From an uncultured Pirellulaceae bacterium (GTDB lineage: Bacteria > Planctomycetota > Planctomycetia > Pirellulales > Pirellulaceae), in NCBI GenBank assembly GCA_964444865.1, contig CAYUJE010000001.1:2500-66499 (forward strand): 64,000 nucleotides of DNA, in the 5' to 3' direction. Within the stretch, counting starts at the first letter, position 1; every line of letters begins with the position of its first letter. Shown here in pieces: positions 52,861 to 55,453 of the stretch. Both the position numbers and the translations under genes were made by a program. The notes beneath the pieces are model-generated. The model was not told where the DNA came from and searched no databases. It was given only the letters and a program-made list of their open reading frames with translations.

Positions 52861-53743
52861 TTGGTGTCGAAACACTGCAACGCAGGGTAAACCACTGGAG
52901 CGATTCATCTTATTCACTTGATTTTTCACGGCCGCCCTCCATTTCGCAACCTCTTTCCGTATATCGCTTTACGTCGATATTCATGATTCCTTTTCGTCTT
53001 AATCCGGCCATTCTTGATTCATAACTTCTGGTGTCTAGTCGCATAAGTCCTTATCTTCATTACCTTTCCGCACAGCCAAGGCCCTGAAACACTCACGGCA
53101 ACCGGCCGCGCGATAAGCTCTTTTTTGTTTCGCTTTCTCCTCCTCGCTTGCCGTAACTCTCTTGCCTTCCACAACTTGCAACTCCCCAGACCTTGATTCA
53201 TGTCTCAGGGCGATAAGCCGTGATCAGCAGCGATCACCTCCTGCCGTCCCCATGGGCAACGACGTACGCCGAGCACAACTCCGCGCGCATCGCACCCCAT
53301 CCTTAAGATGCGCGAGAAGACTCTTTTGTTCACTATACACAAAAGAATCTTTTTCGCTTGGCGCGGGTGTTGGGGGTGCCACTGGCAGGCAAAGGGCGTC
53401 GAGGACTCATCCCGGCGAACACACGTTGCCGCCCTTTGACAGCCAGTGCGGATGGGCGAAAAGACGCCCCATCGCCGATGGTTTCCAGGTAAAGTCGCTC
53501 CACTCGGACGCTGCACTGGCTGACGAGCCGATGGTGAACTTGCACAAATAGCAATATCTTTCGTCGGCTCATCTGCCAGCGCCACCCTACCGCAACCTCC
53601 CGCCCGAATCTGTTGACAGCCGCACACTGAGAGGGAGACAATTGACGAAGTTCAGAAGCCGGATAGGCTGACCCTGTGCAGCTTGCTATCCAGATACGCT
53701 GACCGATTAGGCTGGTCGGTCTAATAATTGTTATCCGCTGAAG

Positions 53744-54250
53744 GTGATGCCAGCCGTGTCTGTCGAACTGAAGAAACTGGAGTGTGTCAAACAGAATGTC
53801 GGAACGAACTTCCCTCGCCGCCCGCTCTCGGAACTTGAGCTACTCGACCACATTCACGGCTGCATTGTGCTGCAGCCCGACCATGGGACGCCCTTCCATA
53901 GTTTTGGTTACTGGGACGCAAACGATGCGTGCCTTGGACAGTGGTTGACTGTATTCACCAGAATTCAGCAGCGTATCGACGCAGGCGGTGATTTCGTTTA
54001 TGAATTCCCCTATCCCGATCAGGGGGATCCACGGCTTGAATTCATTTTTGCGGGTGACACCGCAACGATTCGGACAACCTATTACACGGACGATAACTGG
54101 ACTGAAATTGAAGAGTCTTCTGAGCAATCAACGACGCGTCTGGAACTTGAGAAACTCGTTCGTGACGCATTGAGAATGATCCGGCAGACAGTTGTGGAGG
54201 CCAGCCCAATCGTGGGACTCGCCTGGCTCGAACGCAATCGTCGCGGATAA
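53744..54250 (+). CDS. hypothetical protein (cassette 1)
   Basis: 168-aa ORF with a GTG start at 53744 or an ATG at 53747. No family recognised. Confidence 0.5.
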   Translation: MMPAVSVELKKLECVKQNVGTNFPRRPLSELELLDHIHGCIVLQPDHGTPFHSFGYWDANDACLGQWLTVFTRIQQRIDAGGDFVYEFPYPDQGDPRLEFIFAGDTATIRTTYYTDDNWTEIEESSEQSTTRLELEKLVRDALRMIRQTVVEASPIVGLAWLERNRRG

Positions 54251-54342
54251 CAAATCGTTGCACTTGACCGGGCCGGCATGACGGTTTTTCGAGACATCAC
54301 GTTCCTTGCAGCTGGCCCGGCAAGTGAACGTAGTCGTTATGT
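54245..54342 (+). repeat. attC-like imperfect palindrome 1
   Basis: GGATAAC (54245..54251, overlapping the TAA stop) pairs with GTTATGT (54336..54342). The inner arms gcacttgaccgggccggc and gctggcccggcaagtga pair with one bulged base. Confidence 0.5.
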
Positions 54343-54355
54343 GCCAATATCGAAC

Positions 54356-54829
54356 ATGAAGCCGCTGACCAAACGACAGTTCGACAGGCTTGCGCGCGAG
54401 TTGTTTGGCGGCGTTTTGAATCCACACGGTTTCACCTGCGACGATTCCAAACGATGCACTTTTGTGCGATGCGTCAACGATGACGTGTTTCATATCATCT
54501 TGCCCGATCCCGGAACACGTTGTGCTTGGTACGACATCAATGTCTTCCCTACTTCGCCGCGTTTCCACGACGACTTCGACGACAGATTCCCTGACGATCT
54601 TGGGTTCACCCTCGATTCTTGGTCGAAACTCAGCGAAACAGCGGGAATCGGCTTGGATCAACAGCAATTCAACTGCAAATACGAATCAAATATGCGAAAT
54701 CGCTTCGAGAAAATGGTGGTTGGATTGCTGGAAAATGTGGCCATTCCGTTTTTGGATACAATACAGACTTACGAGGACATCCTTCCTCATTTGCGTGGAC
54801 CGTTTACTCGATTCAAAGACGGCACATAA
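54356..54829 (+). CDS. hypothetical protein (cassette 2), DUF4304-like small immunity-type protein
   Basis: The ATG at 54356 ([26 protein letters not shown]...) lies 13 nt after the GTTATGT core. The family resemblance comes from my memory of the pattern only. Confidence 0.5.
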
Positions 54830-54913
54830 CAATGGCATTAACGCGGAGCCGCCGATCGCGCGTTTTCAAATGGAGCATCAACCGCGGCGGCTCGGTTATG
54901 CCAGACGTTCGGT
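54824..54913 (+). repeat. attC-like imperfect palindrome 2
   Basis: ACATAAC (54824..54830, overlapping the TAA stop) is followed by the inner arms gcattaacgcggagccgccg and cggcggctcggttatgc, and the element ends GTTCGGT (54907..54913). Confidence 0.5.
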
Positions 54914-54934
54914 GGCTGAACCTTCCCGCTGGAA

Positions 54935-55339
54935 ATGAACATGATTGACCGCGTCGCAATGATGGAATCGATCATCGTCGCGTGTCCGAGATTCGCGTCA
55001 ACCTTTGACGCGTTCCTTGCTGAATGGGCCGACGAGACTGAATTACCGTATTACTTGGCGCTCGGAGATTTTTCGCGATACCTGATCCAACTCCTTGCGA
55101 ACGACGAGCGTGATGAACTCACCACGGCATTCAAGATGATCGAACGACTTCATGTTGACGGTGACAAATATGTTCGCGAAGCCGCCACGATCGGAATACT
55201 TGAAAACCTACAGAACTCGAAATTGCACGAACGAACTGACCCCGATCAATTCCTCGCTTTTCTCCGACCAGTTTCGCTGAAGTTTTGGCACAAAGTCACA
55301 GACTTTTGGAAAAACGGTACAATCATTACGGATGACTGA
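54935..55339 (+). CDS. hypothetical protein (cassette 3)
   Basis: 134-aa acidic helical ORF. No family confidently recognised. Confidence 0.5.
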
Positions 55340-55358
55340 CCGTCAAACGTAGCGCACG

Positions 55359-55453
55359 CCACCGAACCATCGCATGCACGGGAGCGGCGGTGGCCAGCGG
55401 ATTTTGAAAACAACGTCAACTCCCGCCGCCCCGTGATGCGGGACGTTGGGTGG
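55359..55453 (+). repeat. attC-like imperfect palindrome 3
   Basis: ccaccgaac (55359..55367) pairs with gttgggtgg (55445..55453). The inner arms cgcatgcacgggagcggcgg and ccgccgccccgtgatgcg pair imperfectly. The right half is homologous to that of palindrome 2. Confidence 0.5.

Follow-up and report, generated by a model that had tools for sequence, protein, structure and literature searches.

What are the three compact genes that stand side by side between lutA and a DUF2459 gene in a 64-kb stretch of planctomycete DNA (contig CAYUJE010000001.1; the whole stretch is called the window here)? A sequence-only reading had proposed that they form an integron-like array in which each open reading frame (ORF) is followed by an attC-like recombination site, and had warned that the hairpins might instead belong to a family of repetitive extragenic palindromes (REP) that happens to follow small genes. 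We find that the locus is very probably a three-cassette integron array with no integrase nearby, that is, an attC site cluster that lacks an integron integrase (CALIN), set in housekeeping chromosomal DNA of a Planctomycetaceae-like bacterium. The layout is as had been described: the forward strand from 53730 to 55451 holds three co-oriented cassettes of 606, 571 and 538 bp (about 540–610 bp had been estimated), each made up of one ORF followed by an imperfect palindrome of 90–98 nt (98, 90 and 91 nt), the attC site (Table 1). The three same-strand ORFs are all present, and every motif that had been quoted was found, including (C)ACCGAAC at 55360-67 and GTTATCC at 53730-36; the internal GTTATGC of attC2 is its L' box. 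The impression of AT-richer DNA was borne out as well, with a GC content of 52.0% in the array against 59.2% in the 10 kb to its left and 58.8% in the 8.5 kb to its right, and both neighbouring genes were confirmed. The attC sites start 579 and 537 bp apart, the ORFs begin 7, 13 and 21 nt past the end of the preceding 7-nt core, and the stop codons of ORF 1 and ORF 2 fall within R'', the box that opens their attC sites. A promoter consensus scan inside the cassettes gave two weak 9/12 matches only, in cassettes 1 and 3, in keeping with the promoterless layout that had been suggested.

The strongest evidence for cassettes comes from their ends. In integrons, the bottom strand of attC folds into a hairpin whose extrahelical bases are recognised by the integrase IntI, a tyrosine recombinase. 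Cleavage by IntI falls between G and TT in the R' core (written G/TT here), and cassettes are gained and lost in circular form. Within an array, the first bases of a cassette are the TTxxxx that comes from its own attC, and its last base is a G; R'' is therefore expected to be complementary to the core with which its own cassette opens (the 5' end) and not to the adjoining R'. This is what we observed. The GTTATCC that opens the array is the exact reverse complement of GGATAAC, the R'' of attC1, and the R'' of each of the three cassettes matches its own starting core throughout (Table 1), compared with agreement between R'' and its own R' at 2, 2 and 3 of the four variable positions. The same rule holds in other arrays: among 60 cassettes from five arrays, all four variable bases matched the preceding core in 51 and the cassette's own R' in 7, with random within-array pairings at 14%. 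The G/TT signature is present at all four junctions of the array, and it provides evidence that is independent of any attC model and fixes the cassette limits. The sequence-only reading had recognised the attC geometry but undervalued this pairing of R'' with the start of its own cassette.

Comparison with other planctomycete arrays supports the identification of the attC sites. These arrays, which were reached through homologues of ORF 2, lie in assembly GCA_028270385.1 (L083), in Novipirellula sp. SH528 (CP197418.1; L084), in assembly GCA_036704275.1 (L085) and on a metagenome contig (L087), and their spacers carry elements of the form xxATAAC-(~80-nt hairpin)-GTTATxx. When 19 elements of other planctomycete arrays were aligned with the three of the window, AAC and GTT were invariant across the 22 sites, and RNAalifold returned 16 stem pairs, of which 15 show compensatory changes. 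Counted on a hand-specified structure of 21 pairs, the paired share of cells in the 22-site alignment was 93.3%, compared with 78.0% for shuffles and no more than 55.4% with slid partners; compensatory two-sided changes occurred in 16 of the 21 pairs against 7.9 expected, and none of 500 shuffles reached 16. To avoid circularity, a covariance model, R2, was built solely from 42 sites of L083 and L084, which had themselves been picked by a model, R1, that had included the three sites of the window, and was run with filters off. On the 64-kb window R2 gave exactly three matches, all on the forward strand and at the predicted coordinates, with scores of 44.7 to 74.6 bits; the next best had an E value of 0.4. 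Thus the covariance-model check that the sequence-only reading had proposed came out in its favour on our own model from the arrays of other genomes. Because of these E values, and because 15 variable bases match between R'' and the preceding core, chance is excluded as an explanation. No attC was detected upstream of the left boundary core in covariance-model scans, and an Rfam gathering search of the whole window returned no family. An energy-based scan for AAC...GTT hairpins proved too noisy to delimit sites, and covariance models were used instead.

The same searches bear on the possibility that the hairpins are REP-like or terminator palindromes behind three small core genes, with no site-specific recombination involved. 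The window does hold hairpins of this sort. A short repeat (~TAGGCCGCTCACTCCGTGAGCGGACA), which is not of the attC type, stands at gene ends at 52585-52611, 30628-30649, 34937-34963 and 56368-56393, the last directly after the DUF2459 stop codon, and is the REP-like or terminator-like family of the window; a perfect palindrome with 21-nt arms (52791-52811 and 52840-52860; CCCGACGCGCAAGCGAGGGAA) and a 28-nt loop, unique in the window, lies in the gap to the left of the array. However, these repeats are unrelated in sequence to the attC sites and reach E values of 0.4 or worse with the attC model; the gap palindrome (52782-52870), tried as a fourth attC, was rejected at 12 bits (E 0.4) and has no AAC/GTT. 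Many dispersed copies, as expected of an intergenic repeat, were not seen in the window or in other loci: the attC type occurs three times in 64 kb, each time in the array, and across 80 lutA loci of other genomes, 1.3 Mb in all, R2 found a single attC, compared with 13–22 at each array locus. Repeats of this kind would also leave unexplained both the match of R'' to the preceding core and the break of homology exactly at G/TT that is described below. The caution about a scattered palindrome family thus did not hold up, and we consider this explanation highly improbable. The single attC among the lutA loci (L019:13491-13582) stands alone in a Planctomycetaceae metagenome-assembled genome (MAG), just downstream of a 397-aa ORF that appears transposase-like as judged by eye.

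The anatomy of the sites follows rules established for integrons, under which the spacers between the R and L boxes are unpaired and 5–6 bases long, the whole site measures 57–141 bp, and extrahelical bases are found on a single arm close to L'', the first of them within L'' and usually a bottom-strand G, the last a conserved T, with a third in between in some sites and a required separation of a 6-bp stem (Nivina et al. 2016, PMC5027507). The three window sites are imperfect palindromes with AAC...GTT ends, of lengths within this range and of conserved structure, and by conventional box assignment their spacers are 5 and 6 nt long. The arms of attC1, for example, read GGATAAC-AAATC-GTT[G]CACTTG[A]CC... 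against ...CAAGTG-AAC-GTAGTC-GTTATGT, with bulged bases in brackets. In all three sites the extrahelical bases are confined to the R''/L'' arm, the first lies inside L'', a 6-bp stem separates first from last, and the last is a bottom-strand T (3 of 3); attC2 has a third, middle one. The fold and extrahelical-base check that had been suggested therefore also favoured attC sites. Complementarity at the outer end of attC3 reaches further, to 55358-55454. Single-strand DNA folds gave z-scores against shuffles of −3.4/−2.3 for attC1, −1.4/−1.9 for attC2 and −3.5/−3.8 for attC3. On the top strand (−3.4 and −3.5), attC1 and attC3 clearly exceed shuffled DNA in stability, attC2 does not, and folding energy by itself would not carry the attC argument. 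Among the closest known systems are class 1 sites such as attC-aadA7 and attC-oxa2 (PMC5027507), which share the order R''-spacer(5)-L''...L'-spacer(6)-R', the AAC/GTT triplets, a length within 57–141 bp, and an L'' arm whose two or three extrahelical bases span a 6-bp stem and include the conserved distal T; unlike them, the window sites show no similarity beyond the core triplets, and their cargo is not antibiotic resistance.

All three window cassettes recur elsewhere beside other neighbours, and their homology does not extend past the cores. Cassette 3 is 89.2% identical at the nucleotide level (481/539) between its G/TT points to a cassette in a MAG labelled Acidobacteria bacterium (GCA_019639155.1, JAHBSJ010000011.1; L094), with 35% and 29% identity just outside these points. 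There, the relative of cassette 3 is the first member of a two-attC array (L094:9966-11203) among dnaG, rpoD, an aminoacyl-tRNA synthetase gene and pnp; this sharing would reflect either cross-phylum transfer or a binning error. Relatives of cassette 2 at 70–81% nucleotide identity were found in L083, L087, L084 and L089, and the sequence after the terminal GTT differs in each. Four other assemblies have homologues of cassette 2 in arrays of 13–22 attC sites, beside other neighbours, and the ORF 2 homologues in the L083, L084, L085 and L087 arrays are 67–87% identical. For cassette 1, the alignment with an L093 cassette runs from GTTATCC as far as the R'' GGATAAC; what precedes it in L093 is an attC and not host DNA. 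The attC2 site itself is closely similar to an attC of the Novipirellula array (L084:4016-4106) that stands behind an unrelated gene. Among the 80 lutA loci of other genomes, none encodes any of the three cassette proteins, and a lutA-anchored search of genome representatives, in which the best relative had 76–77% LutA identity, returned no locus with DUF2459 synteny or the three ORFs and no empty site. Gene order thus spoke against a conserved core locus, as the sequence-only reading would have it, since the closest relatives available lack the three genes at their lutA loci, and elsewhere the genes have other neighbours. A metagenome scan with the ORF 2 family gave four short loci only and no array start with intI. 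Two close homologues of ORF 2 stand alone, with no attC (L082:1854-2336, 92% amino acid identity; L086:10001-10327, 65%, or 61% by tblastn), and one of them is wedged between a PSCyt2/PSD1 gene, 12 nt after it, and a DUF1501 gene; these lone genes may be domesticated cassettes without attC, or may mark an ancestral gene context.

No integrase accompanies the cassettes. Pfam scans of 40 ORFs, comprising the flanking genes, two ORFs of the gap between lutA and the first cassette and 30 larger ORFs of the window, gave no PF00589; tblastn with IntI1 (query verified as NF011946/TIGR02249) against the whole window gave nothing; and six-frame translation of the 1.16-kb gap revealed, with Pfam at E ≤ 10, no PF00589 and no other integrase signal or domain. 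An adjacent intI with PF00589 and the IntI-specific insertion (TIGR02249), which a complete integron has together with attI and Pc, was hence not found within the 64-kb window; an attI is recognisable only through its integrase. Two candidates were discarded: a weak tblastn match of the L085 recombinase, at 20775-21176 of the window, runs opposite to the gene for ribosomal protein S1 (antisense) and is spurious, and the L085 tyrosine recombinase itself falls below the integron-integrase cutoff and lies beside an IS91-type transposase. Because the window contains neither an integrase gene nor a remnant of one, we class the locus as a CALIN and not as a complete integron; with this qualification, the proposed reading as an integron-like array stands. 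By the published definition (PMC4889954), a CALIN has two or more attC sites that share a strand, are separated by less than 4 kb and have no intI close by; here three attC sites share a strand at such distances, and no integrase was found in the nearest tested sequence. The locus resembles the published CALINs further in its small size, its cassettes of unknown function and its lack of a recognisable intI pseudogene; it differs from them in nothing of kind, with attC calls that come from our own covariance models and not from that of IntegronFinder.

How did an array without an integrase arise? One possibility is that it is the remnant of a complete sedentary chromosomal integron whose intI and attI once lay at 52584-53730 and have decayed or been deleted, the cassettes remaining true cassettes. 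This gap is about the size of intI plus attI, is ORF-less, has a GC content of 0.548 and shows no similarity to DNA in the fetched loci; the last core of the array, GTTGGGTGGC, looks like a cassette or attI-type partner and not like random DNA; and integrase loss is one of the accepted origins of CALINs in the literature. Against it stand the six frames of the gap and the IntI1 search, neither of which gave an integrase signal, the finding in the literature that 95% of CALINs have no nearby intI pseudogene, and the position of a small array among housekeeping genes with no insertion sequence (IS) nearby, a pattern shared with L094. We regard such a decayed integron as unlikely. Alternatively, the array may be a detached part of a working integron in the same genome, split off by rearrangement or with its intI beyond the window, and still exchanging cassettes. 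Half of the CALINs in the literature lie in genomes that encode IntI elsewhere, planctomycetes carry large arrays of the same attC type, and all three window sites keep intact AAC/GTT cores and extrahelical-base geometry, as this account would have it; but neither the 53 kb to the left nor the 8.5 kb to the right contains an integrase, and no IS or rearrangement scar flanks the array. We keep this as a possible account towards which we do not lean.

The most likely origin of the CALIN is insertion at a non-att site. The cassettes, or one three-cassette circle, would have entered the chromosome at a genomic GTT by the attG or secondary-site route, through IntI supplied in trans, now or formerly, from elsewhere in the genome or from a transient element. 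The uninterrupted target would presumably have read ...TAATAATTG/TTGGGTGGC..., its left side ending in AATTG. We favour insertion because the left junction is host DNA at G/TT, because there is no integrase remnant or IS, because the array is small and because the same pattern is seen in L094; of these two origins, decay of a complete integron is the less likely. Many small CALINs have been argued to arise by attG insertion (Loot et al., bioRxiv 10.1101/2022.09.11.507474). The window array is similar to the attG insertions, the lone attC sites without an integron integrase (SALINs) and the small CALINs of that study in that host DNA is joined at G/TT, which fits 5'-GWT-3', in that a host promoter possibly lies upstream, and in that the left junction has no adjacent attC, attI or integrase. 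It differs in that the right-hand CRGM motif at positions 6-9 is absent (TGGC here) and in that no empty site was found; the attG rules were measured for IntI1 in E. coli. After insertion, the genes would probably be read from an upstream host promoter, and the sigma-70-like match at 53613-53642 could be such a candidate external promoter for the promoterless cassettes. More tentatively, and with some doubt on our part, the source genome may have no IntI at all, the window and L094 arrays then being cassettes that were delivered across phyla and inserted at non-att GTT sites. If so, small arrays in housekeeping DNA would be field evidence for the attG route, and Planctomycetota and Acidobacteriota would draw on a common cassette pool.

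Several observations weigh against the reading of the locus as a CALIN of mobile cassettes inserted in this way. IntI was not seen within 64 kb, and we infer both the recombinase and its catalysis from the anatomy of the sites and the crossover signature. The gap to the left of the array could be decayed integron DNA. The terminal core GTTGGGTGGC is one base off the GTTCGGTGGC of cassette 3, and a near-identical core at this place could point to a lost fourth cassette or an attI-like partner, and not to a random genomic target. For the attC calls we relied on models of our own, seeded from sites chosen by eye, and not on the attC model of IntegronFinder. The fold energy of attC2 is unexceptional, yet this site is the best covariance-model match of the three. 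The first extrahelical base of the bottom strand departs from the usual G, being C in attC1 and attC3 and A in attC2; in this the window sites differ from class 1 sites too. Finally, no presence/absence polymorphism was observed: a contig of a sister strain (L088), 99.84% identical over 20 kb, carries an identical array, with 32 single-nucleotide differences of which none falls within it, and in a third assembly (L001) the contig breaks within attC3. Within the population sampled, the array is therefore fixed.

That Planctomycetes carry integrons was reported by Cury et al., and a planctomycete-specific attC covariance model has been described by Ghaly et al. 2021 (PMC8352920); the locus is an ordinary example of an already described class. 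It is related to the planctomycete sedentary arrays of L083, L084, L085 and L087, with which it shares the sequence and structure type of attC, co-oriented small ORFs and the common ORF 2 cassette, and from which it differs in size and setting: those arrays hold 13–22 or more cassettes per 8–20 kb and lie among IS, whereas the window array holds three and lies among housekeeping genes. No intI was seen beside any of these four arrays within the retrieved stretches. What the locus adds is a cleanly delimited three-cassette CALIN from an uncultured Planctomycetaceae lineage, and an attC type and individual cassettes that are common to planctomycete orders and apparently also to an Acidobacteria MAG. 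Should cassettes spread by insertion away from att sites and later become domesticated, small integrase-less arrays in housekeeping DNA are what one would expect to see. Mild interest attaches to the clean crossover signature, to the apparent cross-phylum occurrence of cassette 3 and to a housekeeping position with no integrase, and the case illustrates that integron cassettes can be recognised by reading raw sequence.

Table 1. Features of the cassette array, in order along the window; a slash in G/TT marks the crossover point, bulged bases are in square brackets, and R2 denotes the covariance model built from other arrays.
Feature	Position	Strand	Particulars
Promoter match	53613..53642	+	sigma-70-like, TTGACA-18-GACAAT, 10/12, consensus scan; host DNA, 88 nt upstream of the array
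Left boundary core GTTATCC	53730..53736	+	crossover between G53730 and T53731; TTATCC is part of cassette 1
Cassette 1	53731..54336	+	606 bp; limits from G/TT cores; GC 0.535; core GTTATCC (53730) vs R'' GGATAAC (54245), match 7/7
ORF 1	53744..54250	+	168 aa, GTG start; gene call P0029 starts at ATG 53747
attC1	54245..54342	+	98 nt; R'' GGATAAC 54245-51; spacer AAATC; L'' GTT[G]CAC; L' GTGAAC; spacer GTAGTC; R' GTTATGT 54336-42; bulged G54260 and A54267, 6 bp apart; R2 44.7 bits, E 3.4e-11
Cassette 2	54337..54907	+	571 bp; begins TTATGT, complement of its own R'' ACATAAC; core GTTATGT (54336) vs R'' ACATAAC (54824), match 7/7
ORF 2	54356..54829	+	157 aa
attC2	54824..54913	+	90 nt; R'' ACATAAC 54824-30; L'' CAT[T]AAC; L' GTTATG; R' GTTCGGT 54907-13; bulged T54839, G54843 and A54847; R2 74.6 bits, E 1.8e-20
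Cassette 3	54908..55445	+	538 bp; begins TTCGGTGGC, complement of its own R'' GCCACCGAA(C); core GTTCGGTGGC (54907) vs R'' GCCACCGAAC (55358), match 10/10
ORF 3	54935..55339	+	134 aa; DUF7674 protein, Pfam PF24722, E 1.6e-24
attC3	55361..55451	+	91 nt; R'' ACCGAAC 55361-67; L'' CAT[G]CAC; R' GTTGGGT 55445-51; bulged G55376 and A55383 with CACGGG (6 bp) between; R2 63.6 bits, E 4.8e-17

The cargo proteins are typical of the large pool of unknown cassette genes: the three, of which one is a DUF7674 protein, are compact, confidently predicted folds without known relatives. ORF 1 gave no reportable Pfam match (NIF at E 0.078, below the cutoff) and no match in NCBIfam or PADLOC, and has 22 homologues (clusters) at 55–100% identity. 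ORF 2 likewise matched nothing in Pfam, NCBIfam or PADLOC, and has 28 homologues (clusters) at 61–92% identity. AlphaFold2 models of the two reached a mean predicted local distance difference test (pLDDT) score of 85.8 for ORF 1 and 88.6 for ORF 2, and a PDB search with these models returned nothing significant (best E ≥ 0.02, template modelling (TM) score ≤ 0.4). The mechanical ORF and the public gene call for ORF 2 start further upstream, at ATG 54278 inside attC1, which gives 183 aa (54278-54829; L088:10532-11083); nearly all ORF 2 homologues are 153–161 aa long and start at the equivalent of ATG 54356. For ORF 3, the true start is likely ATG 54941, giving a predicted 132 aa as in its homologues, and the gene call in the sister strain is also 132 aa. 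Its 49 homologues include proteins of Rhodopirellula, Pirellula, Leptolyngbya and Bradyrhizobium; searches for exact copies of ORF 3 and of P0042 returned nothing.

The DNA around the array is chromosomal and of housekeeping character. To its left lies a CCG-domain LutA-like gene, followed by LutB, and the surroundings encode ribosomal protein S1, FtsH, two GroEL paralogues, IlvD, GlmS and a site-2 protease; the window also codes for planctomycete signature families such as DUF1501 and DUF1559. The two Cpn60/GroEL paralogues are neighbours on the same strand (28686-30617 and 31105-32724) and are unrelated to the array.

The arrays used for comparison have features of their own. That of L085 (2688-4912 and 12508-18800) is interrupted by elements that include an IS91-type unit, with a Y2 transposase and a tyrosine recombinase, and its distal end has IS66, IS4/Tn5-like and ISL3 elements. 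In L084 (12534-19992), a reverse-transcriptase gene (RVT_1, possibly of a group II intron) stands within the array; beyond it lie one strong attC (14462-14553) and one weak one (14006-14098), and further on the opposite strand carries HNH-repeat, ParB-like and serine-recombinase genes.

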